Positions 2,875 through 17,426 of a DNA stretch of 64,000 nt are shown piece after piece. Origin of the DNA: Escherichia phage humlepung; sequence record MN850564.1, one strand, 5' to 3'. Every line of letters starts with the position of its first letter. The first letter of the stretch is position 1. Under the pieces are notes generated by a model. That model saw only the letters and a list, made by a program, of their open reading frames with translations. It searched no databases and was not told where the DNA came from. The position numbers and the translations under genes are program-made.

Positions 2875-3416
2875 TCTTTCACCATAGCGTTTCTGAACTG
2901 GCGTTGTGTTTCTCTTGTAATTTCGTTTGGAGTAAACCCTGCTTTTAGCATATCTCTGAAAAGAACTTCTAAATGGTTCCTCTCAATGATGTAAATGGCA
3001 TTCTGAATAGCTGTTTTGCACTCCTTCAGGTCACTACTAATCTCTTCGCACTTACTGGTAAGCTCTGTGTCAACTTTCTTATAGACTGGCATAACATGTG
3101 CGTAGCAACCCTTATTAGCCTCCATGAAAAATTTAAAAGATTCTTCAGAGTCCTTTAGAGCAATCCCTATAAAGTTTTTGTAAGCGCCTGTGAAAGATAA
3201 TGACTCAATCTCAGCAGTTGAGTATACAGTCCCTGCACACAGTCTTGCAGAAGTACTAAATGTGTGGTTTGGTGTTGTGTCAAAGTCTAAGTTCTTCAGT
3301 GGTCGGAAATAAACTGTACCGTTGTGTGAGATGTGTGTTACAACAGCCTCAACACTCTTTGAAGGATTCTGTTTAACATACAAAATGATTTTATCGTGTT
3401 CTTTCACTTTAGCCAT
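2871..3416 (-). CDS. hypothetical protein (181 aa)
   Basis: ORF in operon. Confidence 0.5.
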   Translation of the reverse strand: MAKVKEHDKIILYVKQNPSKSVEAVVTHISHNGTVYFRPLKNLDFDTTPNHTFSTSARLCAGTVYSTAEIESLSFTGAYKNFIGIALKDSEESFKFFMEANKGCYAHVMPVYKKVDTELTSKCEEISSDLKECKTAIQNAIYIIERNHLEVLFRDMLKAGFTPNEITRETQRQFRNAMVKE

Positions 3417-3488
3417 ATCTACTCTCCAGAAACTAAAAAGGGAACTACCTCTCGATAGCTCCCATCATAATCAATATTATATACTCGG

Positions 3489-4700: not shown

Positions 4701-5098
4701 TAACGAATCACCTGTGAGACTTGAATTGCTTCAGTTACTGACAAATCACCCACTTTCTCTTCTTTGATAAAAGTGAAGGTGAGTTCAACAGGCTCTTGCT
4801 CTTCTTGCTCAACTGGAACACCGTTAAGCTCATCAAAGATTGATTGAGTTGTCCAGTCTTCTCCACCATCTGGATAGTGGATTGCGTAAAGAGGGAACTC
4901 TAAATCAAACCAACCAAATACAGGACAACCGTCTTCATCATCTCGTACTCGATGAAGTGTGCTTCCAGACCCTGTAAACTGAAGGAATAAATCTCCGTTG
5001 CACTTGTATATTACTGCGTCGGCAAAACCAATGTCTTCTCGACCATCATGACCAAATGTGTCCACCTTTACTTGGATATCTCTAACATCTTTATTCAT
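4700..5098 (-). CDS. hypothetical protein (132 aa)
   Basis: ORF in operon. Confidence 0.45.
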   Translation of the reverse strand: MNKDVRDIQVKVDTFGHDGREDIGFADAVIYKCNGDLFLQFTGSGSTLHRVRDDEDGCPVFGWFDLEFPLYAIHYPDGGEDWTTQSIFDELNGVPVEQEEQEPVELTFTFIKEEKVGDLSVTEAIQVSQVIR

Positions 5099-8967: not shown

Positions 8968-10383
8968 ATGAGCGAATTATTTAAACATGCGCACCTTCAT
9001 GCAGGTCGAACTGAAAATGGTGCTGTAAACCATACTTCATCAATGTCTGCTCTTGTAGACTTTTACAAAGCTGCTGGTTCGAGCCGTAGCAATGTAGAAA
9101 TCTTACCAGACCTGTTCTACAAAGCTTTGCGTGAGGATGTTGATGTTGCAGTTCGTATTTTACTGCATATGCGAGATGTACGAGAAGGTATGGGTGAGCG
9201 TAAAGCTTTCCGAACTGTTTTACTTAAAGCAATTGAAGATAAGATTTTAGAACCTACACAGGTTCTTCGCATTATGGATAAGATTGCAGAACTTGGTCGT
9301 TTTGATGACTTCAAAATCTTCGTAGGTACTCGTTTTGAGACAGATGCCTTCAAACATTTAGAAGCAGCATTACTAGACCCTGCAACAGCAGGTTTGGCGG
9401 CTAAGTGGTTACCACGAGTCAAACCACGTCATAAGCAGTTTGTAAAACGTTTCTGCAAGTTTGCCAACTTGAGTGAGAAAGAGTACCGCACACTGTTGTC
9501 TGCACTATCTGATACAGTTGAGCAAAAAATCTCTGCTAATGAGTTTGGTAAGATTGACTACAGTAAGATTCCTTCACTTGCTGCTGCACGTTACCAAAAA
9601 CTGTTTAACCGTAAAGATGGAGAGCGTTACAAAGCTTACATCGAGTCCTTATCAAAAGGTGAGACTAAGATTAACGCTGGTGCTGTTTACCCATACGATG
9701 TGATTAAATCTGTCAAGTATGGTAATGCAGATGTTGCTAATGAGCAGTGGAAAGCACTACCAAACTGGATGGCAGAAGGTGAAAACATCTTGTGTATGTC
9801 TGATGTATCAAGTTCAATGTCTTGGGTGAATTTTGGCTCCATTACTGCTCTGGATATTGGTGTATCACTTGCCTTGTATGTAGCAGAACGCAATACAGGT
9901 TGCTTTAAGAATGAGTTAATGGTTTATTCAACAAACCCTCACTTCATCGAACTGAGTGGTGATTTACGAAACCGTCATCGTCAGGTGATGCGACACGTTG
10001 AATATGGCTCAACTAACTTACAAGCAGCTTTTGACCGCATTCTTGAAACAGGTAAAAGAAACAACTTGACTCAGAAAGATATGCCAAGTAAGCTTATCAT
10101 CTTCTCCGATATGGAGTTCAATCAGGTTGATGGAGCTAACGGTCGTACAAACTTTGAAGCAATTCAGAGTAAGTACAAAAAAGCTGGATATGAGATGCCA
10201 CAACTGGTATTCTGGTACTTAGCAAACCGTAATGGTACTTGCGAAGTATCTGTTAAGGATAACGGTGTAGCAATGGTATCAGGGTTCTCTCCAGCCACTT
10301 TAAAAGCTCTGCTTGGTGGTGAGAAGTTTGACCCAATCAGTGTAATGCTCAAAGCAGTAATGATTGACCGTTATATCTGGTAA
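8968..10383 (+). CDS. Ro60/TROVE-like protein with C-terminal von Willebrand factor A domain (DUF2828-like N-terminus by recollection)
   Basis: MIDAS-like DVSSSMS...T...IIFSDMEFN resembling Ro60 vWA (DVSASM / FTDCETN); N-terminal TENGA...S..ALVDFY motif. Confidence 0.6.
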   Translation: MSELFKHAHLHAGRTENGAVNHTSSMSALVDFYKAAGSSRSNVEILPDLFYKALREDVDVAVRILLHMRDVREGMGERKAFRTVLLKAIEDKILEPTQVLRIMDKIAELGRFDDFKIFVGTRFETDAFKHLEAALLDPATAGLAAKWLPRVKPRHKQFVKRFCKFANLSEKEYRTLLSALSDTVEQKISANEFGKIDYSKIPSLAAARYQKLFNRKDGERYKAYIESLSKGETKINAGAVYPYDVIKSVKYGNADVANEQWKALPNWMAEGENILCMSDVSSSMSWVNFGSITALDIGVSLALYVAERNTGCFKNELMVYSTNPHFIELSGDLRNRHRQVMRHVEYGSTNLQAAFDRILETGKRNNLTQKDMPSKLIIFSDMEFNQVDGANGRTNFEAIQSKYKKAGYEMPQLVFWYLANRNGTCEVSVKDNGVAMVSGFSPATLKALLGGEKFDPISVMLKAVMIDRYIW

Positions 10384-10402
10384 AAAGTTTTAAAAAGGGT
10401 AT

Positions 10403-10431
10403 TGACAATGTGTTTAATACCCTTTAATATG
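10403..10431 (+). promoter_or_regulatory. Sigma70-like promoter TTGACA-17-TAATAT inside inverted repeat AAGGGTATT/AATACCCTT
   Basis: Exact -35 consensus, 17-nt spacer, TAATAT -10; upstream of tRNA array. Confidence 0.6.
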
Positions 10432-10548
10432 TTCTACATAGAAGCGAAATGAGAGCTTTTCTAAGATACTGAAAAATATTTTAAAAAAGTTCTTGACAAC
10501 CACTAAAAAATAATGTTAAAGTGGTTACATAGAGTTTGAAAAGTTTAT

Positions 10549-10625
10549 CTCTGTTTAGCTCAGCTTGGTAGAGCGTTCCGTTTGGGGCGGTAAGGCCGGA
10601 GGTTCAAGTCCTCCAACAGAGACCA
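10549..10625 (+). tRNA. tRNA-Pro (anticodon TGG)
   Basis: 7-bp acceptor ctctgtt/aacagag, D-arm gctc/gagc, T-loop TTCAAGT, encoded CCA. Confidence 0.75.
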
Positions 10626-10632
10626 AATTAAT

Positions 10633-10710
10633 GTTCCAGTAGACAAAATGGTAAAGTCACCACTCTTTCAAAGTGGATATTTGAGGGTTCAAATCCCTTC
10701 TGGAACGCCA
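10633..10710 (+). tRNA. tRNA-Glu (anticodon TTC)
   Basis: Acceptor gttccag/ctggaac, anticodon loop cTTTCaa, T-loop TTCAAAT, CCA. Confidence 0.7.
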
Positions 10711-10715
10711 GTTTT

Positions 10716-10791
10716 GACAGAAGACCAATTACAGCAAACTTAATCTTATTCATCTGAAGGTAAATCGGACAAAGAAGAGATTTGGTCTGGT
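10716..10791 (+). repeat. Structured repeat element copy a (5' GACAGAAGACCA ... 3' TGGTCTGGTC)
   Basis: Member of four-copy family with conserved CAGAAGACC...TACAGCAA...GGTCTGG and covarying flanks. Confidence 0.5.
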
Positions 10792-10801
10792 CATTAAGAA
10801 T

Positions 10802-10878
10802 TGCGGGTATAGAGAAAGGGCGTCTCACATGTCTCATTAGCATGGTATCGGCAGGTTCGACTCCTGCACCCGCCTCCA
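10802..10878 (+). tRNA. tRNA with CAT anticodon (Met or Ile2)
   Basis: Anticodon stem catgt/gcatg, loop cTCATta, T-loop TTCGACT, CCA; 1:72 mismatch. Confidence 0.6.
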
Positions 10879-10882
10879 ATTT

Positions 10883-10946
10883 TGCAGAAGACCGTATTCA
10901 GCAACAAAATACTTTTTGCGGATAAAAGAAAAAACACGGTCTGGCA
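10883..10946 (+). repeat. Structured repeat element copy b (5' TGCAGAAGACCGT ... 3' ACGGTCTGGCA)
   Basis: Same family; flank covariation tGC/GCa. Confidence 0.5.
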
Positions 10947-10955
10947 ATGTATTAA

Positions 10956-11029
10956 GGTTAGGAAGCACATAAGGTATGTGCGGTCGCCTGTTAAGCGAAT
11001 GGCACAGGGTTCGAATCCCTGACTAACCG
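10956..11029 (+). tRNA. tRNA-Asn (anticodon GTT)
   Basis: Anticodon loop ctGTTaa, T-arm caggg-TTCGAAT-ccctg, acceptor 6/7 paired; no encoded CCA. Confidence 0.65.
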
Positions 11030-11040
11030 CAAAATTAAAT

Positions 11041-11128
11041 GTGTCGTTATCCCGTAGATGGTAGCGGTGGGGACTGTAAATCCCTTGTCATTGAGACTCG
11101 GTAGGTTCGACTCCTACACGGCACACCA
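11041..11128 (+). tRNA. tRNA-Tyr (anticodon GTA), type II with long variable arm
   Basis: 85 nt, acceptor gtgtcgt/acggcac, loop ctGTAaa, T-loop TTCGACT, CCA. Confidence 0.7.
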
Positions 11129-11133
11129 ATAAA

Positions 11134-11210
11134 GGCTATGTAGTTTAACTGGAGAAAATACTCCCCTGTCACGGGAGATGATGTGAGTTCAAGTCTCATC
11201 GTAGCCGCCA
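11134..11210 (+). tRNA. tRNA-Asp (anticodon GTC)
   Basis: Acceptor ggctatg/cgtagcc, loop ctGTCac, T-loop TTCAAGT, CCA. Confidence 0.7.
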
Positions 11211-11237
11211 ATTTTGAGAGGGCTATTTAGCCCCTCC

Positions 11238-11272
11238 CTTAAAGAGTTCTTACGAGTATTCTTTAAGGGAGC
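11238..11272 (+). repeat. Hairpin CCCTTAAAG-(agTTCTTACGAGtatt)-CTTTAAGGG
   Basis: 9-bp perfect stem; loop motif TTCTTACGAG recurs at 14277-14286. Confidence 0.5.
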
Positions 11273-11348
11273 AGAAGACCAAATACAGCAAGAATGTATG
11301 AAATTTCAAGCCAATTTAATTTTGAAAATTTAAAACTTGGTCTGGCTC
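11269..11348 (+). repeat. Structured repeat element copy c (5' GAGCAGAAGACCAA ... 3' TTGGTCTGGCTC)
   Basis: Same family; flank covariation GAGC/GCTC. Confidence 0.5.
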
Positions 11349-11354
11349 AACAAA

Positions 11355-11493
11355 TTTACAGAAGGCCGTTTACAGCAAAACTTAAACAATCTATTTCTCC
11401 GGTAAAGAAAAGGCGAAGGTTCGATTCCTTCACTCGGCAGATGTCGAGTTGGTGTAATGGTAGCACTTAAGATGATAAACAACGGTCTGGTAA
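11355..11493 (+). ncRNA. Candidate structured ncRNA (element copy d): terminal stem TTACAGAAGGCCGTT/AACGGTCTGGTAA enclosing tRNA-like T-arm and D-arm hairpins
   Basis: Internal gaagg-TTCGATT-ccttc hairpin with T-loop consensus, acceptor-like hairpin, D-arm-like gtgtAATGGTAgcac; no complete tRNA fold. Confidence 0.3.
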
Positions 11494-11639
11494 TTACCTT
11501 TGTAGATAAGTTATTAAGCTTACTTGTGAGTATGCGACCACAAAGGGTGAATGGGTAAATTCTAGATTTAAACCCAAAAAGGCACATCGCTACAGACCTT
11601 AAGCAAGTCTGGGTAGCTTATCTACAAAGATAATTTAAT

Positions 11640-11715
11640 GGAAGTGTAGCAGAATGGTGATGCGGCAGACTTTTAATCTGACAGGCGATGGGTTCGAATC
11701 CCTCCACTTCTACCA
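11640..11715 (+). tRNA. tRNA-Lys (anticodon TTT)
   Basis: Acceptor ggaagtg/cacttct, loop cTTTTaa, T-loop TTCGAAT, CCA. Confidence 0.65.
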
Positions 11716-11719
11716 ATAT

Positions 11720-11796
11720 GGTTCAGTCGCAGATAAGGTAATGCAAGGGTCTCATAAGCCCTATGAATGTGGGTTCGATTCCCATCTGAACCTCCA
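11720..11796 (+). tRNA. tRNA with CAT anticodon (Met or Ile2), second copy
   Basis: Perfect acceptor ggttcag/ctgaacc, loop cTCATaa, T-arm gtggg-TTCGATT-cccat, CCA. Confidence 0.65.
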
Positions 11797-11797
11797 A

Positions 11798-11873
11798 GCT
11801 GGTATAGTTAAGAAGGTTATAACACTCCCCTGATAAGGGAACATCGGTGGTTCGATTCCACCTACCAGTACCA
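11798..11873 (+). tRNA. tRNA-Ile (anticodon GAT)
   Basis: Loop ctGATaa, T-arm ggtgg-TTCGATT-ccacc, CCA. Confidence 0.65.
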
Positions 11874-11888
11874 ATTTCAATAAAGTTG

Positions 11889-11917
11889 TTGACATTGAGA
11901 TGTGACTACTTTATAGT
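11889..11917 (+). promoter_or_regulatory. Sigma70-like promoter TTGACA-17-TATAGT inside the tRNA region
   Basis: Exact -35, 17-nt spacer, TATAGT -10. Confidence 0.55.
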
Positions 11918-12121
11918 AACCTTAGTTTTCGTTGCGTAGCGTCTATTTTGCAAATTTAAAATAAATGCAAACGACAATGTTTTTCTGGCAGTAGCTTGAT
12001 AGGCTAAACACCAGTGAGGTCTTCCAATCCCTCATCAAAGAATTTGGCGTACTCGCCCACGGTATGATTAATAAGGTGGGCATCTTTAAGGGCTTTCTAA
12101 GAGAGTCTTTAAAGATAATTA

Positions 12122-12203
12122 CGGGGCGTATCTCAGCGGTCTTCTAAACCGCCGTTAACCGAGTAAGTGGAGTATGCGGGTTCGAGTCCTGCCGCCTCGA
12201 CCA
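12122..12203 (+). tRNA. Atypical tRNA-like gene, anticodon stem-loop gcggt-cTTCTaa-accgc (TCT, Arg-like), no recognisable D-arm, 23-nt extra segment
   Basis: 7-bp acceptor cggggcg/cgcctcg, T-arm gcggg-TTCGAGT-cctgc, CCA; only 7 nt between acceptor and anticodon stem. Confidence 0.4.
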
Positions 12204-12346
12204 ATTTAGTTAGCAGATTACTTAGACGACCTTAGCGGGTCTTCCTGTAGGGAGGTGGTCTGTATCTCATGTTTTCCAGAACATGTAAATAATCTGAGAA
12301 GGGGCTTTACAGTGTTGAGATAATACGGTAAGCTTCGAATTATAGT

Positions 12347-12429
12347 ATGGGACGATATTAAGACTCTAAGGCATGAGCAACGGCTTCCAACACCGTTTCA
12401 AAGGGGTTCAACTCCTCCGTCCCATGCCA
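12347..12429 (+). tRNA. Atypical tRNA-like gene, anticodon loop compatible with CCA (Trp) closed by a C-A pair, or 9-nt loop
   Basis: Perfect acceptor atgggac/gtcccat plus CCA, T-loop TTCAACT; D-region irregular. Confidence 0.35.
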
Positions 12430-12442
12430 AAGTCTTATTAGG

Positions 12443-12530
12443 GGTAGGTAGCGGCTAATGGTAGCCAAACTGTCTTGAAAACAGTTGCCACTGTAGAGAT
12501 ACGGTGAGGGTTCGACTCCTTTACTTACCG
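12443..12530 (+). tRNA. tRNA-Ser (anticodon TGA), type II
   Basis: 88 nt, stem actgt/acagt with loop cTTGAaa, long variable arm, T-loop TTCGACT. Confidence 0.65.
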
Positions 12531-12787
12531 CCTAATAAGATTTAAAGCCAAGCTTCATTCGGATGTTGCTTTGGTATACCGCGTGTATTGTTGTACGCAC
12601 TGATAAAGCACCTAGTAGGTGTCACGGAGAAGAGATAATATCAAGCTCTCCAAAGGTTCTAGTCACCGGATTAAACAAGACTATGCAAAGACCTTTTTAG
12701 GTCTTTTTAGAGGGCTTCTAAGGTTATTACAGCTTGTTGTGGAACCTTGTTGCTTAGGTTCTTAGAAGTTCTCTAAAAAGATTTAAT

Positions 12788-12865
12788 GGGAGATTGACGG
12801 TAATTGGTAAACCTACCATCCTTAGAAGTTGGTGTTTGAGGGTTCGAATCCCTTGTCTCCTACCA
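12788..12865 (+). tRNA. tRNA with TAG anticodon (Leu-type anticodon but short, type-I length)
   Basis: Acceptor gggagat/gtctcct with G-U pairs, loop ctTAGaa, T-arm gaggg-TTCGAAT-ccctt, CCA. Confidence 0.5.
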
Positions 12866-12872
12866 AATTAAT

Positions 12873-12948
12873 GCAGGTGTAGCAAAATGGTTATGCGGCT
12901 GACTCTTAATCAGTAAGACGATGGGTTCAATTCCCTCCACCTGTACCA
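12873..12948 (+). tRNA. tRNA-Lys (anticodon CTT)
   Basis: Stem gctga/tcagt, loop ctCTTaa, T-loop TTCAATT, CCA. Confidence 0.55.
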
Positions 12949-12954
12949 GACATT

Positions 12955-13030
12955 GGGGTCATAGTTTATATGGTTAAAATTCGAGTTTTGCAAACTTGGG
13001 AACTGAGTTCAATTCTCAGTGACTCCACCA
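12955..13030 (+). tRNA. tRNA-Ala (anticodon TGC)
   Basis: G3:U70 wobble pair in acceptor (Ala identity element), loop ttTGCaa, T-arm ctgag-TTCAATT-ctcag, CCA. Confidence 0.75.
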
Positions 13031-13036
13031 ATTAGT

Positions 13037-13111
13037 GCATCCATAGTTTAAACGGGAAAATTACAGTCTTCCAAACTGAGGTTGAGGGTTCGATTCCCTC
13101 TGGATGCTCCA
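13037..13111 (+). tRNA. tRNA-Gly (anticodon TCC)
   Basis: Perfect acceptor gcatcca/tggatgc, loop ctTCCaa, T-arm gaggg-TTCGATT-ccctc, CCA. Confidence 0.7.
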
Positions 13112-13117
13112 AACAAT

Positions 13118-13194
13118 GCTGCTTTCGTATAATTGGCTATTACACATCCCTTGTAAGGATGGAAATGCAGGTTCGAGTCCTGTGAGCAGCACCA
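13118..13194 (+). tRNA. tRNA-Thr (anticodon TGT)
   Basis: Perfect anticodon stem catcc/ggatg, loop ctTGTaa, T-loop TTCGAGT, CCA. Confidence 0.75.
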
Positions 13195-13199
13195 ATTCA

Positions 13200-13283
13200 G
13201 AGGTCAAGTGAAAGACCGCTGGTGTCAACTGAAGACCGTAACAAATTCCACGGAGTTGAGTTAGCGGCACAACTTCAGACCTC
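13200..13283 (+). repeat. Stem element AGAGGTC...GACCTCT enclosing a GAAGACCGTAAC motif
   Basis: 7-bp terminal inverted repeat; internal CTGAAGACCGTAACAAA resembles the 5' arm of elements a-d. Confidence 0.4.
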
Positions 13284-13289
13284 TTTCAC

Positions 13290-13364
13290 ACTCGCTTAGT
13301 TTATATGGTAAAACACCACCCTTACAAGATGAAGAAAAAGGTTCAAGTCCTTTAGTGAGTACCA
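13290..13364 (+). tRNA. tRNA-Val (anticodon TAC), tentative isotype
   Basis: Acceptor actcgct/agtgagt, loop cTTACaa, perfect T-arm aaagg-TTCAAGT-ccttt, CCA; anticodon stem has mismatches. Confidence 0.55.
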
Positions 13365-13365
13365 T

Positions 13366-13443
13366 GTTCCAGTATCCCAATTGGCAGAGGATGCAAGCTC
13401 AAACCTTGTATTAGTGACGGTTCGAATCCGTCTTGGAACACCA
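13366..13443 (+). tRNA. tRNA with CAA anticodon (Leu-type anticodon, type-I length)
   Basis: Acceptor gttccag/ttggaac, stem gcaag/cttgt, loop ctCAAac, T-arm gacgg-TTCGAAT-ccgtc, CCA. Confidence 0.55.
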
Positions 13444-13462
13444 ATTTAAAGAGGCTATTTAG

Positions 13463-14020
13463 ATGAGATATTTGAAGTATGCTTCATGGATTTTCCTAGC
13501 TTTACTAGAGCCATTTGCAGCAACCCTAGCAGTCATCTTAGCACCTTTCGTAGTTCCATTCTACAGTGAGAAGAAAGGACACTTACCTTTCGGGTTCAGA
13601 TGGATGGAGACATATGACAACCCAATTGATGGTGATGAAGGTCACGTTAAAAGATGGGCTAATATTAGATGGATTGGTAAACTAGGTGTCTACATGCAAA
13701 GAGTTGGATGGCTCTGGAGAAACAAAGCTTATAACTTCTCTTACCATGTATTAGGAAGAGATGTAAAAGATGTTACTAAGTGGAAAGGTAATATCAACGT
13801 AAGTTCTAACCCTGAAGATAATCAGACTGGTTATCTCCTAATGTGGAACAGGAATGCTTGGGGATTATTCGCTTTTATCCCATCAATTAAAATCTTTGGT
13901 AAACAATTTTACTGGAGAATTTATATTGGATGGAAACTAAAAAGTGTTGTCCCAGAAGAAAGAGCATTCTCAAGGGAAAGAGTTATGTTGGCATTCTTTA
14001 TTCATCCACTGAGAAAGTAA
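13463..14020 (+). CDS. hypothetical membrane protein (185 aa, Trp-rich) encoded inside the tRNA array
   Basis: ATG with AAAGAGG RBS; N-terminal hydrophobic segment. Confidence 0.55.
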   Translation: MRYLKYASWIFLALLEPFAATLAVILAPFVVPFYSEKKGHLPFGFRWMETYDNPIDGDEGHVKRWANIRWIGKLGVYMQRVGWLWRNKAYNFSYHVLGRDVKDVTKWKGNINVSSNPEDNQTGYLLMWNRNAWGLFAFIPSIKIFGKQFYWRIYIGWKLKSVVPEERAFSRERVMLAFFIHPLRK

Positions 14021-14028
14021 AGATTTAA

Positions 14029-14104
14029 AGGGGATTAGTTTACAAGGTTAAAACCTCGGTCTTTGAAATCGAAGAAGTTGGTTCAATTCCAACATCCCCC
14101 GCCA
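14029..14104 (+). tRNA. tRNA-Gln (anticodon TTG)
   Basis: Loop ctTTGaa, perfect T-arm gttgg-TTCAATT-ccaac, CCA; 1:72 mismatch. Confidence 0.6.
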
Positions 14105-14106
14105 AT

Positions 14107-14185
14107 GCTCCATTACTCCAATTGGCAGAGAGGCCAGACTTAAAATCTGTGTTATGTATCGGTTCGAATCCGATATGGAGTACCA
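14107..14185 (+). tRNA. tRNA with TAA anticodon (Leu-type anticodon, type-I length)
   Basis: Loop cTTAAaa, T-arm atcgg-TTCGAAT-ccgat, CCA; D-arm resembles the CAA tRNA. Confidence 0.5.
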
Positions 14186-14190
14186 AATTT

Positions 14191-14266
14191 AGCGGTATAG
14201 CATAACTGGCAATGCAGCAGTCTCTGAAGCTGTCTTATTAAGGTTCAAATCCTTATGCCGCTGCCA
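14191..14266 (+). tRNA. tRNA-Gln (anticodon CTG), tentative
   Basis: Acceptor agcggta/tgccgct, D-stem gcat/atgc, loop ctCTGaa, T-arm taagg-TTCAAAT-cctta, CCA. Confidence 0.55.
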
Positions 14267-14267
14267 C

Positions 14268-14294
14268 TTCTAAGGATTCTTACGAGAGTCCTTA
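14268..14294 (+). repeat. Hairpin with loop motif TTCTTACGAG (second copy)
   Basis: aaggaTTCTTACGAGagtcctt; motif shared with 11250-11259. Confidence 0.45.
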
Positions 14295-14297
14295 AAT

Positions 14298-14373
14298 GTG
14301 GCCTTATCATAAATGGTAATGACCCATGCTGTGAACATGGTCTATACGGGTTCAAATCCCGTAGGTCACCCCA
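14298..14373 (+). tRNA. tRNA-His (anticodon GTG)
   Basis: Perfect anticodon stem ccatg/catgg, loop ctGTGaa, T-arm acggg-TTCAAAT-cccgt, CCA. Confidence 0.7.
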
Positions 14374-14379
14374 ATTTAT

Positions 14380-14455
14380 AGTCCAAGTAGCTTATATGGT
14401 TAAAGCGCGTGTCTGAAAAACATGAGAAGAGGGTTCAAATCCCACTGGACTACCA
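14380..14455 (+). tRNA. tRNA-Phe (anticodon GAA)
   Basis: D-stem gctt/aagc, loop ctGAAaa, T-loop TTCAAAT, CCA; acceptor register uncertain by 1 nt. Confidence 0.6.
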
Positions 14456-14471
14456 ATTTCAAAGGTGCTTA

Positions 14472-15206
14472 ATGAAAGAGATGACAGAACAAGGTAAGGA
14501 GATTTTTAATCTCTTAAAAACCGGTAAAGGGTTTTCTAACCCACTTATTACTGGTGCAGCAGTTCTCGGTGGAACCGTAGCTGCCTCTACATCACTTGTA
14601 AGCTCTATTAGCTCTGTAACAGACCCTACAATGAAGGAGAAGCTTGTTGCTGCTGGACTTACAACAGTCCTTCTAAACAGCTTTACAACAATCCTGACAA
14701 GCACTACAGCAACCACTAAGACCCTAACAGACTACGGTCAAAAGTCTATTGATGAGTTTTCATCACGTATGCAGGTAGCAAAGGGATATTCCAATGTTAT
14801 GGGTGCAGCAGGAGAACAAGTTGGTTGTACACCATTCAGTGGTATTATGGGTGTTGCTACAGAGTATGGTCAAAAAGCTATTGACATGATTAACAGTACA
14901 CTAGATAGTGTTAATGGTGTGTTAAGTGACTTACAAGACGCTATTGATGAGGGTCTTGATACTGTTTCTGATTTAGCTAATCAGGCTGTTAGTAAGATTA
15001 ATGAAGGTATTTCAAAGATTACAGCTTATGCAGATGAAGTTGTGCAGATGATTGAAGAAGAAGCTGCCCTTATTGCAGAGTACCTTAAAACGAATATCAA
15101 TGGGTTCTTAGCAGGTATCTTACCAGACTGGTTTGATGATGCTTGTAAAACTGGTGTAATTGATGCTATTGCAACACCAGAAATGAAGAACGCATTACAG
15201 AAATAA
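14472..15206 (+). CDS. hypothetical protein (244 aa, Ala/Thr/Ser-rich)
   Basis: ATG at 14472 with AAAGG RBS; the track start at 14409 would overlap tRNA-Phe. Confidence 0.5.
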   Translation: MKEMTEQGKEIFNLLKTGKGFSNPLITGAAVLGGTVAASTSLVSSISSVTDPTMKEKLVAAGLTTVLLNSFTTILTSTTATTKTLTDYGQKSIDEFSSRMQVAKGYSNVMGAAGEQVGCTPFSGIMGVATEYGQKAIDMINSTLDSVNGVLSDLQDAIDEGLDTVSDLANQAVSKINEGISKITAYADEVVQMIEEEAALIAEYLKTNINGFLAGILPDWFDDACKTGVIDAIATPEMKNALQK

Positions 15207-15207
15207 T

Positions 15208-15300
15208 GGAAGATTAACCCTAAAAGGTAAGGGAGCAGTTTGCTAAACTGCCAGTAGCTGAGAAATCGGTGTACCAGTTCAAGTCTGGTATCTTCCTCCA
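15208..15300 (+). tRNA. tRNA-Ser (anticodon GCT), type II
   Basis: Perfect acceptor ggaagat/atcttcc, stem gcagt/actgc, loop ttGCTaa, long variable arm, CCA. Confidence 0.7.
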
Positions 15301-15304
15301 ATTT

Positions 15305-15380
15305 GAATCCGTGACAGAAATGGCTATGTGCCTGTCTGCAAAACAGGTTTATAAGGGTTCGAGTCCCTTCGGATTCTCCA
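15305..15380 (+). tRNA. tRNA-Cys (anticodon GCA)
   Basis: Perfect acceptor gaatccg/cggattc, stem cctgt/acagg, loop ctGCAaa, T-arm aaggg-TTCGAGT-ccctt, CCA. Confidence 0.75.
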
Positions 15381-15416
15381 AGTTATTTTACTCTCTCTCA
15401 ATTAAAATAATAATAA

Positions 15417-15478
15417 TGCCCTGCTATAAGTATTCTTCCTTTCGCTACCGAAGAGTATTTTTAGACAGGGCTTTTTTA
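15417..15478 (+). terminator. Long imperfect hairpin (gccctg...cagggc) followed by TTTTTT
   Basis: Inverted repeat plus T-run after the tRNA array. Confidence 0.45.
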
Positions 15479-15542
15479 CAGAGTTATACTTTATAGGAAG
15501 ACTTATACAGTATGTCTCTGACGTACATTGTGGTTTCTCCTT

Positions 15543-15566
15543 GACGGTCTCTGTGCCGTCTTTTTT
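15543..15566 (+). terminator. Rho-independent terminator gacggtctctgtgccgtc + TTTTTT
   Basis: 5-bp GC-rich stem, 8-nt loop, T-run. Confidence 0.5.
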
Positions 15567-15602: not shown

Positions 15603-15803
15603 ATGAGTGAGACCATTTATAAAGAACTTTATGAAGCTAATAAGAAGCTAGAGTTTATGCAGAATACTATCATGGCAATTGCAGATAGATTATCTGTAGC
15701 AACAGGTATAGATATTAAAGAAGCATCTATGGATGCACTTCTTGATGCTGTTGATGCAAAGTTCGAAGTTAAGAAAGAAGAGACTGCGACAGACTCTGAA
15801 TAA
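15603..15803 (+). CDS. hypothetical small acidic protein (66 aa) upstream of terminase
   Basis: ATG with GGAG RBS. Confidence 0.4.
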   Translation: MSETIYKELYEANKKLEFMQNTIMAIADRLSVATGIDIKEASMDALLDAVDAKFEVKKEETATDSE

Positions 15804-15824
15804 TTCTATTTGCGGAGGCGCTTA

Positions 15825-17426
15825 ATGGACTTAAATGCTGTTAAGCAGAAGCGAGTGGAAGATGTTAGGAAAGTCCTAGCTGGAGAGTTGGGGCTTTCTG
15901 ATGAAGTAAAAGAAATTATCAAATCATTCGGTAAAGACCCCTCTAAATTCCTTCCAACTCAAATTCTGACTTTATTAAGATACACACCAGACCAAGTTAG
16001 GCTTATCTTCAAATTGATGACTGATAAGAACTATGTAGCCCCTCAGCCGGGTTCTCAAGAGGTCTTTTTAAACACTAATGCTGACTTGGTTCTTTATGGT
16101 GGTGCTGCTGGTGCTGGTAAAACTGCTGCATTGTTAATGGACTCTTTAAGATTTATTGAAGACCCTAACTATAATGCTGTATATTTCCGTCGAAATACAA
16201 CACAGTTACAAGGTGGTTTATGGCCTGCTGCAAAGAAACTATTTGGTAAGTTTGGTGGGATTCCCCATGAGCAGAAAATGACTATCACATTCCCTTCTGG
16301 GGCGACTATCAAGTTTACCTATCTAGAACTTGAAAAGCACGCTGAAGGCCATCAGGGTATTGAATACTCAGCTATTTACTTTGACGAAGGTACACACTTC
16401 TCTGCTTCACAGATTTCATACCTACAAACCCGTCTACGTTCTGGTGCTGAAGGTGATTCATACATGAAGATTTCCATGAACCCAGATAGAGACCACTTTA
16501 TTTACGATTGGGTAGAACCATTCTTAGATGAAGAAGGTTACCCAGACCCTGAAAAGTGTGGTCGTATTCGTTGGTATGTAATGAATGATGGTGTGATGGT
16601 TTCTGATTGGGAGAGAGACAAGATTCTTGAAATGTTCCCTCTTGAGATTCCTCAAACATATACATTCATCTCTGGTACGATTGATGATAACCCAATTCTT
16701 GACTTCTTAGAACCAAAATACCGTGGTAAGTTGGAAAACAACACCCCTGTAAACGTTGCAAGACTTCGTTTCGGTAACTGGAAGGCTCGTGCAGAAGGTT
16801 CAAACTATTGGCAAAGACAATGGTGTGAAATTGTTGATTCACTCCCAGAAGATGTATTTGATGTTAGAGCATGGGACTTAGCAGCAACTTTACCATCGGA
16901 GATTAACCCTAATCCAGACTGGACAGCAGGTGTTAAGATGGGTAAATCTAAAAAAGACGGTTGCTATTATATCATTGATGTAGTAAGATTTAGAGATAGA
17001 CCCTCTGGAGTCGAAACACAAATTAATTTGACTGCTGAAAGTGACGGTAAGCGAACTGGTATTTTTATCCCTCAAGACCCAGGCGCTGCTGGTAAATCCT
17101 ACGCAACATCCCTCATCAGGAAACTTGCCGAGAAAGGTTATCGAGCAAGAGCCAAACCAACAAATAAAGATAAAGTTACCCGCTTTGCGGGATTTTCTGC
17201 TGCTTCTGAAGCTGGACTTGTAAAAGTCTTGAGAGGTAGTTGGAATGAAGCTTACTTTCAAGAGCTTGAAGGCTTTTGTGGTGATGGCAAAACTAAAGAT
17301 GACCAAGTGGATGCTACCAGTGATGCTTTCAACAGTCTTAACGAAGTTAAATTATTCAAGCCACCATCAATGGGTGCTCACACAGATTTAGTGAGAGGAA
17401 ACCCATATGAGGGGCTTAGACGTTGA
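15825..17426 (+). CDS. terL: terminase large subunit
   Basis: Walker A LYGGAAGAGKT; start moved to ATG 15825 with GGAGG RBS (track start 15810 is TTG). Confidence 0.85.
   Translation: MDLNAVKQKRVEDVRKVLAGELGLSDEVKEIIKSFGKDPSKFLPTQILTLLRYTPDQVRLIFKLMTDKNYVAPQPGSQEVFLNTNADLVLYGGAAGAGKTAALLMDSLRFIEDPNYNAVYFRRNTTQLQGGLWPAAKKLFGKFGGIPHEQKMTITFPSGATIKFTYLELEKHAEGHQGIEYSAIYFDEGTHFSASQISYLQTRLRSGAEGDSYMKISMNPDRDHFIYDWVEPFLDEEGYPDPEKCGRIRWYVMNDGVMVSDWERDKILEMFPLEIPQTYTFISGTIDDNPILDFLEPKYRGKLENNTPVNVARLRFGNWKARAEGSNYWQRQWCEIVDSLPEDVFDVRAWDLAATLPSEINPNPDWTAGVKMGKSKKDGCYYIIDVVRFRDRPSGVETQINLTAESDGKRTGIFIPQDPGAAGKSYATSLIRKLAEKGYRARAKPTNKDKVTRFAGFSAASEAGLVKVLRGSWNEAYFQELEGFCGDGKTKDDQVDATSDAFNSLNEVKLFKPPSMGAHTDLVRGNPYEGLRR

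Follow-up and report, generated by a model that had tools for sequence, protein, structure and literature searches.

The stretch of 64,000 nucleotides (nt) analyzed here, termed the window, is from Escherichia phage humlepung (sequence record MN850564.1) and contains a large transfer RNA (tRNA) array at positions 10549–15380. The array is probably (a likelihood of roughly 0.68) a co-transcribed small-RNA factory, in which RNAs encoded in the gaps between tRNA genes are freed by tRNA processing and four of them, which resemble Y RNAs, partner a Ro60-like protein encoded upstream of the array. Sequence comparisons suggest that the gaps hold a divergent YrlA-type set of Y RNAs that are candidate partners of this protein. 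This Y-like set, a transfer-messenger RNA (tmRNA)-like RNA and two tRNA-like RNAs are unannotated and appear to be undescribed in the literature searched. The original prediction for this region had proposed structured RNAs other than tRNAs in the gaps and an RNA-related protein biology of the cluster, and both are borne out.

Ro60-like gene and Y-like RNAs

The protein gene concerned is the following.

8968–10383, plus strand: Ro60-like gene (TROVE ring plus vWA) encoding 471 amino acids (aa); Pfam DUF2828 and DUF7788; PHROG 850, 'RNA-binding protein'

The stop codon of this gene is 165 nt ahead of the first tRNA. A model of the 471 aa protein, calculated with AlphaFold from 35 homologues, has a predicted local distance difference test (pLDDT) score of 87 and a predicted template modeling (pTM) score of 0.87. 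A Foldseek search of the PDB with this model gives Ro60/TROVE structures at all of the top 12 positions, with template modeling (TM) scores of 0.50–0.66, E-values of 4e-8 to 1e-6 and a probability of 1.0. These matches are full-length and include the Xenopus, human, Deinococcus and Thermus phage phiLo proteins; vWA domains rank next. As modeled, the protein has the Ro60/TROVE fold.

A tie to Ro60 by sequence was considered and rejected, as phmmer with the single protein and a profile of 35 sequences find no match to the solved Ro60 proteins in the PDB, and only the fold shows the relation. The Pfam TROVE family is not matched by the protein, which matches DUF2828 and DUF7788 only. Unlike the solved Ro60 proteins, it belongs to a DUF2828/DUF7788 branch.

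The protein family is present in 709 phage records. Mycobacteriophage homologues with 31–34% identity are annotated as 'Ro-like RNA binding protein'. In 27 of 72 distant loci, tRNA genes are found within 4 kb of the Ro-like gene, and they are on the same strand as that gene in all 27. In FelixO1-like phages a small DUF5681 gene always precedes the Ro-like gene (L096–L098, approximately 3060–3450; L012, 2304–2675). The DUF5681 gene remains in the Ro-less Erwinia and Pectobacterium relatives, with tRNAs directly after it.

A protein of phage Bas63, gp130, is reported to be Ro60-like by structure, to be encoded directly upstream of the tRNAs of that phage and to act against ppl, a defence system of a kind other than the tRNA-cleaving ones (2024 preprint, PMC11482910). 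Bas63 is linked to Felixounavirus in the same work. From its position and description we infer that gp130 is the counterpart of the 8968–10383 open reading frame. The authors of that study speculated that some annotated Bas63 tRNAs might be Y RNAs, and identified none (PMC11482910).

Four Y-like copies are found in the window.

10715–10793, plus strand: Y-like copy 1, short, without a tRNA-like module; covariance model R2, 37.0 bits, E = 9e-5
10882–10947, plus strand: Y-like copy 2, short; R2, 43.1 bits, E = 4e-6
11269–11348, plus strand: Y-like copy 3, short; R2, 37.6 bits, E = 7e-5
11356–11493, plus strand: Y-like copy 4, with the YrlA layout; R2, 111.8 bits

The first copy begins 332 nt downstream of the Ro60-like gene. 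All four are also present in Shigella phage Tf, Citrobacter phage Moogle and SUSP1. Each copy is closed by an outer stem of 4 base pairs (bp) whose sequence differs from copy to copy yet remains paired, i.e. UGAC/GUCA, UUGC/GCAA, GAGC/GCUC and UUAC/GUAA. An internal loop follows, with 3 nt on the 5′ side (a bulge) and 1 nt on the 3′ side, and then an inner helix (AGACC/GGUCU) that starts with an A-U and a G-C pair. Next is a single-stranded box, YUACAGCAA, and a variable interior.

Copy 4 displays, in order, the closing stem with its 3 × 1 internal loop, the box UUACAGCAA, a T arm (GAAGGUUCGAUUCCUUC), an acceptor-like hairpin and a D-arm-like hairpin. The Rfam tRNA model gives a partial match on its T arm. 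In bacterial YrlA, the defining arrangement is a T arm followed by an acceptor-like hairpin and then a D arm (Chen et al. 2014, PMC4201824). Copy 4 shows this module order together with the closing helix; copies 1–3 are without the module.

The covariance model R2 was made from seven sequences and rebuilt from 33 hits, and 773 kb were searched at E ≤ 0.01. It finds 78 matches, and in every case the strand is that of the Ro-like gene. The window has the four copies and nothing more. Matches are present within 4 kb in 30 of the 72 distant Ro-like loci, 17 of these at E ≤ 1e-5. Homologues with quite different helices are located directly upstream or downstream of Ro-like genes whose proteins are 40–63% identical. 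Erwinia phage M7 and Pectobacterium phage Wc4-1 (L014, L015) have a tRNA array and no Ro-like gene at the syntenic site, and R2 finds no match in either of them.

Base pairing is conserved in an alignment of 33 homologues. Cells are paired in 93.4% of cases compared with 36–46% when partners are slid, a figure that is inflated by fitting of the alignment to the model structure, although the margin is still large. Compensatory changes are present in 25 of 27 pairs, and there are 269 double-change cells compared with 85 in shuffles. The Rfam YrlA model (RF02553) matches distant loci over its full length at sub-threshold scores of 37–42 bits (E-values 5e-6 to 1e-4), and its alignment places the phage box ACAGCAAAU on the YrlA motif acggCgaAU with two G-to-A differences.

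Besides the inflated pairing figure, several results weigh against a Y RNA assignment and a Ro60 partnership. In 42 of the 72 distant loci R2 has no match within 4 kb. The Rfam YrlA model is silent on the window, whether the region is searched at E ≤ 5 or 171 nt at copy 4 are searched at E ≤ 10, and its gathering score of 69 bits is not reached either there or in the relatives with their 37–42 bits. The exact YrlA 5′ motif GNCGAAN0-1G is absent from the Y-like copies, where the box is YUACAGCAA. Because of the missing Rfam match and the missing GNCGAA, copy 4 is regarded as a divergent relative of YrlA and not as a member of the Rfam family. Furthermore, gp130 by itself is enough to rescue T7 on the ppl strain, with no phage RNAs present (PMC11482910), and therefore the protein needs no Y-like RNAs for its anti-ppl activity. 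A point against the account of the array as a whole is that ribosome entry is hard to explain for the tmRNA-like RNA considered below, which has no tRNA-like domain.

In common with bacterial and phage Ro60–YrlA systems (PMC4201824, RF02553, PMC12135203), a gene of the Ro60 fold has small RNAs adjoining it. The Ro60 protein of Thermus phage phiLo binds two adjacent Y-like RNAs (Yrl1/Yrl2) and the host polynucleotide phosphorylase (PMC12135203). Copy 4 shares with YrlA the closing helix, the tRNA-like order and a conserved purine-rich box on the 5′ side, and the shorter companions without a tRNA-like part (copies 1–3) resemble Salmonella YrlB. Differences from YrlA are the box, which is CAGCAA here and GNCGAA (the proposed Ro60 contact) in YrlA, an extra bulged helix upstream of the box, and the number and location of the RNAs, of which there are four, set among the genuine tRNA genes of an array.

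In the proposed mechanism, three promoters (10402, 10493 and 11889) would drive transcription of the array. The transcript would be cut by RNase P of the host together with further enzymes of tRNA processing, and the gap RNAs would be by-products of tRNA maturation. By analogy with known Ro60 particles, the Y-like RNAs may bind the Ro60-like ring by means of the bulged closing helix and the adjacent CAGCAA box, which would correspond to GNCGAA, the motif by which bacterial YrlA binds Ro. The resulting ribonucleoprotein (RNP) may gate the protein, or link it to host enzymes of RNA decay or tRNA handling, as is the case in bacterial and Thermus phage RNPs, with the tRNA-like module of copy 4 as a possible handle.

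Ro60/Y RNA particles are poorly understood beyond a few bacteria. In a published screen a FelixO1-type Ro60-like protein defeats a bacterial defence, and its RNA partners have so far only been guessed. With candidate RNAs located, a covariance model available and a conserved box open to mutation, such an RNP would be directly testable in an E. coli phage.

Three other probes or structures were tried and rejected. A helix formed by GGUCUGG and CAGAAGACC that would enclose tRNA-Met is not upheld, as the two flanking bases covary solely in the hairpin pairing. The exact motif AGAAGRCC...GGTCTG, as a probe for the family, finds nothing beyond Ounavirinae in the distant loci. A hand-made helix-and-box descriptor is too loose (702 matches compared with 303 in shuffled sequence), and covariance models took its place.

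An R2 match (32.8 bits, E = 8e-4) is also present at positions 5091–5172 of L100, in the tRNA array of a Cronobacter S13-like phage that had been obtained for its DUF7338 gene. A Cronobacter phage related to L100 has a Ro-like protein.

Other accounts of the gaps and the embedded proteins

Covariation, strand bias, the association with the Ro-like gene and a tag frame conserved in the manner of coding sequence weaken each of the alternatives. One of them, which is unlikely, is that the Y-like and tRNA-like RNAs act independently of Ro as decoys for host tRNA-targeting nucleases or tRNA-sensing regulators. Copy 4 mimics a tRNA elbow, the exact loop CUUCUAA of the tRNA-like RNA at 12122–12203 is found in every phage examined, gp130 is active against ppl without phage RNAs, and phage tRNAs counter anticodon nucleases (cited in PMC11482910). 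A decoy role does not explain why the short copies 1–3, which have no tRNA-like part, still keep the closing helix and the box, or why the Y-like family is missing from Ro-less relatives with otherwise similar arrays. Adjacency to the Ro-like gene is moreover conserved on both its upstream and downstream sides.

It is very unlikely that the gaps are mere spacers, i.e. hairpins for processing and degenerate tRNA pseudogenes that duplication and the movement of homing endonucleases have left behind, in an array that just matches phage codon usage. Compensatory base changes would not be retained by pseudogenes across phages whose Ro-like proteins have an identity of only 40–55%, nor would pseudogenes show a strand bias of 78 to 0 or co-occurrence with one protein family. 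In the 27 distinct sequences of the tmRNA-like element, the frame is moreover always 10 codons long and varies at the third position. On the other side are the tRNA-derived arms in copy 4 and in both odd tRNA-like elements, the HNH endonuclease genes at variable insertion places in relatives, and the perfect hairpins directly upstream of tRNA 5′ ends. Also on that side, the tRNA genes of Bas63 are mostly non-essential by PhageMaP (PMC11482910).

The original prediction had pointed to the two proteins embedded in the array as candidates for its tRNA-related or anti-defence factors. Both open reading frames are present where it had placed them.

13463–14020, plus strand: DUF7338 protein, 185 aa; Pfam E = 1e-60
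14472–15206, plus strand: DUF7217 protein, 244 aa; Pfam E = 2.5e-86; PHROG 2114, function unknown

DUF7338 homologues are located in or beside tRNA arrays of a T4-like Salmonella phage (L099), the Cronobacter S13-like phage (L100) and a third lineage (L102). In L102, DUF7217 comes after DUF7338 and both are again embedded; otherwise DUF7217 homologues are found solely in FelixO1-like phages. In L101, DUF7338 is near just one tRNA, approximately 1 kb away. From these comparisons, the positional tie of DUF7338 to tRNA arrays is real, and it is the one point in favour of the proposal. Neither protein shows a nucleic-acid-binding or enzymatic fold or domain, and an RNA-related fold is found instead in the product of the Ro60-like gene, which lies just outside of the region that had been singled out. 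The confident model of DUF7338 (pLDDT 94) has an N-terminal membrane helix (residues 2–33) and an alpha/beta domain, and has no match in a fold search of the PDB. A leading role of the two proteins is very unlikely. As for clear unrelated homologues, which had been named as a point against them, all homologues are of unknown function.

Some records label DUF7338 as a holin, citing no experimental basis. Holins are small membrane proteins, encoded together with the endolysin, that set the timing of lysis. The single N-terminal helix fits a membrane anchor; yet the protein has a folded domain of approximately 150 aa and is located in the tRNA array. In relatives, the lysozyme gene is on the opposite strand, approximately 3 kb ahead of the Ro-like gene, and in L099 a lysozyme gene is located 670 nt downstream.

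The tmRNA-like RNA and the two rewired tRNA-like RNAs

This part of the array begins with an internal promoter, which the original prediction had correctly located.

11889–11917, plus strand: internal sigma-70-like promoter before the tmRNA-like RNA; TTGACA-17-TATAGT, 11 of 12 matches, the best of the region and conserved in L096
11925–12121, plus strand: tmRNA-like RNA without a tRNA-like domain; weak match to Rfam tmRNA (RF00023), model positions 56–295

The window sequence after the promoter is AAAAUAAAU GCA AAC GAC AAU GUU UUU CUG GCA GUA GCU UGA UAG. The comparable sequence of E. coli ssrA is AAAAAAUAGUC GCA AAC GAC GAA AAC UAC GCU UUA GCA GCU UAA UAA, which encodes ANDENYALAA. The tag frame of the phage element, at 11967–11996 with a GCA start, gives ANDNVFLAVA and is followed by the stops TGA TAG (11997–12002). 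The two tags share the AND start and a hydrophobic end, here L-A/M-V/A-A. Downstream (3′) of the tag, a helix spans the stop codon, and two pseudoknots and then a terminal hairpin (12083–12116) follow it. Shared with tmRNA (ssrA, RF00023) are therefore the A-rich leader, the GCA resume codon, the 10-codon tag, the stop codon in a helix and the pseudoknots that follow. E. coli tmRNA has three pseudoknots downstream of the tag, compared with two in the tmRNA-like RNA.

The element is found in 628 phage records from unrelated families with 71–100% identity and is annotated in none. Carriers include the P22-like phage HK620, where it is between pR′/qut and tQ, 46-kb Klebsiella siphoviruses, Ackermannviridae, Schitoviridae and Erwinia phages. 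Of 5426 complete E. coli genomes, 135 also have the element, and the PGAP annotation has nothing at that location. An exact 14-mer scan of IMG/VR for the leader was dominated by chance hits (96 of 120), which were removed by means of the downstream motifs and the tag frame.

Among 27 distinct sequences the tag frame is invariably 10 codons plus a stop. The peptides fit AN[DE]xxxL[AM][AV]A, e.g. ANDNVFLAVA, ANEEMYLAVA, ANDDVVLMAA and ANDEQFLAVA, and codon position 3 is about twice as variable as positions 1 and 2. A sequence-based alignment of the 27 displays six helices, with 96.2% of cells paired compared with 29–45% when slid, and compensatory changes in 15 of 28 pairs. In the first pseudoknot, the hairpin loop CCGA/CCAA/CCAG/CUAG covaries with the downstream UCGG/UUGG/CUGG/CUAG; this loop-to-downstream pairing (helix 4) is 100% paired. 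Both pseudoknots have compensatory changes, and their four constituent helices are 93–100% paired.

The acceptor stem with G3:U70, the T arm and the CCA of a tRNA-like domain are absent from the element, and ARAGORN calls no tmRNA there. The Rfam tmRNA gathering score of 47 bits is not reached, the scores being 16 bits in the window and 11–12 in HK620 and BUCT541. These absences would fit a dead host ssrA fragment gained by recombination, which is nevertheless the least credible of the alternatives given the spread of the element over unrelated phage families, six covarying helices that include two pseudoknots, a fixed-length tag frame with coding-type variation, and a near-consensus promoter of its own in the window.

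Phage ssrA is listed only in mycobacteriophages and Bacillus phage G in the tmRNA surveys consulted (PMC4131195, PMC11915505). The mycobacteriophage DS6A has a tmRNA consisting of the tRNA-like domain only, which inhibits tmRNA (PMC4131195, PMC11915505). The humlepung element shares with DS6A the carriage of half a tmRNA by a phage. It is however the opposite half, with the mRNA-like domain and the pseudoknots but neither acceptor stem nor T arm, and unlike the DS6A form it is spread over enterobacterial phages of many families and their prophages. No description of an mRNA-like-domain-only tmRNA was found in the literature searched or in the tmRNA surveys.

The RNase P cut at 12122 would set the 3′ end of the tmRNA-like RNA, which most likely interferes with or redirects host trans-translation. 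In the wider proposal, 11925–12121 represents a new class of phage tmRNA mimic with a conserved variant degradation tag, by which hundreds of enterobacterial phages and prophages block, titrate or re-template host trans-translation, and the UCU and CCA RNAs of the array (below), if charged and used by the ribosome, are tRNAs with a connectivity unseen in cellular tRNAs. This proposal is tentative and its chances are put at somewhat less than even. If true, the tmRNA-like RNA would be a previously unnoticed phage route to ribosome rescue, present in model phages such as HK620 and in the 135 complete E. coli genomes.

In HK620 (L003) the motif CAGGTAAGAGCAT flanks the element on both sides (approximately 1372–1388 and 1622–1636), and the 3′ copy is kept after it in many other phages. 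The flanking and the 3′ conservation suggest that the element moves as a cassette.

Two tRNA-like RNAs follow the tmRNA-like RNA.

12122–12203, plus strand: tRNA-like RNA with a UCU (Arg) loop; Rfam tRNA 31.7 bits, missed by ARAGORN
12345–12429, plus strand: tRNA-like RNA with CCA (Trp) in a 9-nt loop; from an alignment and consensus fold with 5 relatives

In the 12122–12203 RNA, an acceptor stem of 7 bp, a T arm and CCA are accompanied by a 5-bp stem that has CUUCUAA as its invariant loop. This anticodon arm lies within a 3-bp helix that resembles a D stem (CUC/GAG, or CGC/GCG in a Streptomyces phage). The GG-containing strand UAAYUGGAGUAUG is located after the enclosing helix and not within a D loop. 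Compensatory changes are present in 12 of 17 pairs (7 sequences). The RNA is found in 263 phage records, including jumbo, T5-like and phi92-like phages with 83–90% identity. An HNH endonuclease gene is often located after it, which suggests spread by homing.

The 12345–12429 RNA is called by neither ARAGORN nor Rfam. Its acceptor stem is 8 bp long, with G as the discriminator and a CCA end, and it also has a T arm and a 5-bp stem whose loop of 9 nt is CUUCCAACA. Approximately 24 nt separate the acceptor from the anticodon stem, and 5 pairs are compensatory. It is conserved in five relatives, including the Ro-less phage Wc4-1.

Both RNAs have an acceptor stem, a T arm with a GGTTCRANTCC-type loop and a 3′ CCA. 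A standard D arm and a 7-nt anticodon loop in cloverleaf order are found in neither, and ARAGORN rejects both. The UCU and CCA loops correspond to exactly the two amino acids absent from the canonical tRNA set, Arg and Trp, and Moogle, SUSP1 and Wc4-1 have a canonical tRNA-Arg at the corresponding place. Judged from their sequences, the two RNAs probably supply the missing Arg and Trp decoding. They bear on how far the tRNA core tolerates rearrangement while still working, and on why annotation pipelines report these phages as being without tRNA-Arg and tRNA-Trp.

The possibility that 12122–12203 is the tRNA-like domain of a split tmRNA, with alanine identity (G3:U70, A73), was rejected. G3:U70 is present in the window and absent in phi92 (G:C) and Kamaji (U:G), and the discriminator varies.

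Between the two RNAs, at 12204–12344, are conserved hairpins. This is the insertion point of an HNH gene in FelixO1, heid, L096 and others, and the counterpart in Moogle and SUSP1 has a 24-nt insertion.

The tRNA array and other structured segments

The array as such is ordinary, as it is already annotated in Felixounavirus records; it is a known FelixO1-type cluster. The region has 97.7% identity to Escherichia phage allfine (MN850633), and 314 phage records match, mostly Felixounavirus. Gene order and the two embedded open reading frames are shared with the annotated FelixO1-type arrays of allfine and Moogle. In the public records of such arrays, gaps are empty or are given short hypothetical open reading frames, whereas structured RNAs are proposed here.

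10549–15380, plus strand: tRNA array with 24 canonical genes (ARAGORN; 21 of the 24 also reach the gathering score of Rfam tRNA)
10402–10430 and 10493–10522, plus strand: two sigma-70-like promoters heading the array, each with 10 of 12 matches
15418–15478 and 15543–15566, plus strand: terminator-like hairpins with U tracts closing the array (scan match at 15543–15560; fold of 15381–15500)
11497–11639, plus strand: strongly folded segment of 143 nt, z-score –5.1
12697–12786, plus strand: long near-perfect hairpin, z-score –3.8 to –5.8 (hairpin family)
13199–13285, plus strand: structured spacer between tRNA-Thr and tRNA-Val, z-score –3.0

The 24 tRNA genes called by ARAGORN are all on the plus strand, and none is found elsewhere in the window. 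The canonical set covers 18 amino acids, with Arg and Trp missing. Approximately 26 genes had been predicted, and this total is reached when 12122–12200 (added by Rfam) and 12345–12429 (which surfaced through comparative alignment) are counted. The duplicates predicted for Lys (ttt, ctt), Gln (ttg, ctg), Ser (tga, gct) and CAT (two copies) are all present; a triple Leu (tag, caa, taa) had been overlooked. In allfine (L001, 5551–5625) an extra canonical tRNA-Arg is located between tRNA-Leu(caa) and the DUF7338 gene, and is absent at the comparable window positions 13444–13462.

The leader at 10402–10522 is conserved in Moogle, SUSP1 and L096. Promoter-like sites overall are no more frequent than by chance, with 14 found compared with 12.7 expected from shuffled sequence. 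At the other end of the array, the fold of 15381–15500 shows a hairpin followed by UUUUUU (z = –4.5).

Folding of the gaps was judged by the z-score of the minimum free energy against shuffled sequence. The gap positions of the original prediction (11211–11639, 11874–12121, 12531–12787 and 13195–13289) are correct, and its view that the gaps are structured applies to most of them, which are far more stable than shuffled sequence (z = –3.0 to –5.8). It does not apply to 12533–12682, which was dropped as a structured element with z = –0.2, no more stable than shuffles.

In the 11497–11639 segment only the hairpin ACAGACC-UUAAGCAAG-UCUGG is conserved in the consensus fold, and it covaries in 6 relatives. 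A family of CUUUAARG-type hairpins is located at 11236–11268, 12083–12116, 12697–12786 and 14271–14294, each just upstream of a tRNA or tRNA-like 5′ end. These near-perfect hairpins are likely processing or boundary signals, as inferred from their location. The 13199–13285 spacer is 97% conserved in Moogle and SUSP1, i.e. too alike for a covariation test.

The tRNA cluster of phage T4 encodes stable small RNAs that are not tRNAs, species 1 and 2 (rnaC/rnaD). Structured small RNAs located among tRNA genes and freed by tRNA processing are common to T4 and to the proposal made here. The T4 RNAs differ in that they are not known to have an associated Ro60-like protein, and the two systems are likened by description only.

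A conserved open reading frame of 66 aa at 15603–15803 (PHROG 4397, function unknown) is located after the array and ahead of the gene for the terminase large subunit (15810–17426) in the window.

Arrays of other phages contain further RNAs. A structured RNA of approximately 200 nt (GAGAGCUUUAGUGG ... T-arm-like GGUUCGA ... CACUAAAGG ... AACACGAGGCGAC..GCGCCUACUCUUAA) is present in the tRNA arrays of three phages with Ro-like genes, at L024 6652–6893, L097 5030–5280 and L098 5107–5250. Part of it is called 'tRNA-???' by ARAGORN, and it was not seen in the window. A short conserved hairpin RNA with the core GCGCGGCUGGAAACACCCACUCAAUAG is found between tRNAs in two distant phages (L096, 5998–6075; L024, 7272–7345). 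L024, a 148-kb phage contig, also has an ARAGORN tRNA at 3231–3305 with the anticodon CTA (amber-reading, labeled 'Pyl'), which is approximately 700 nt upstream of the Ro-like gene.

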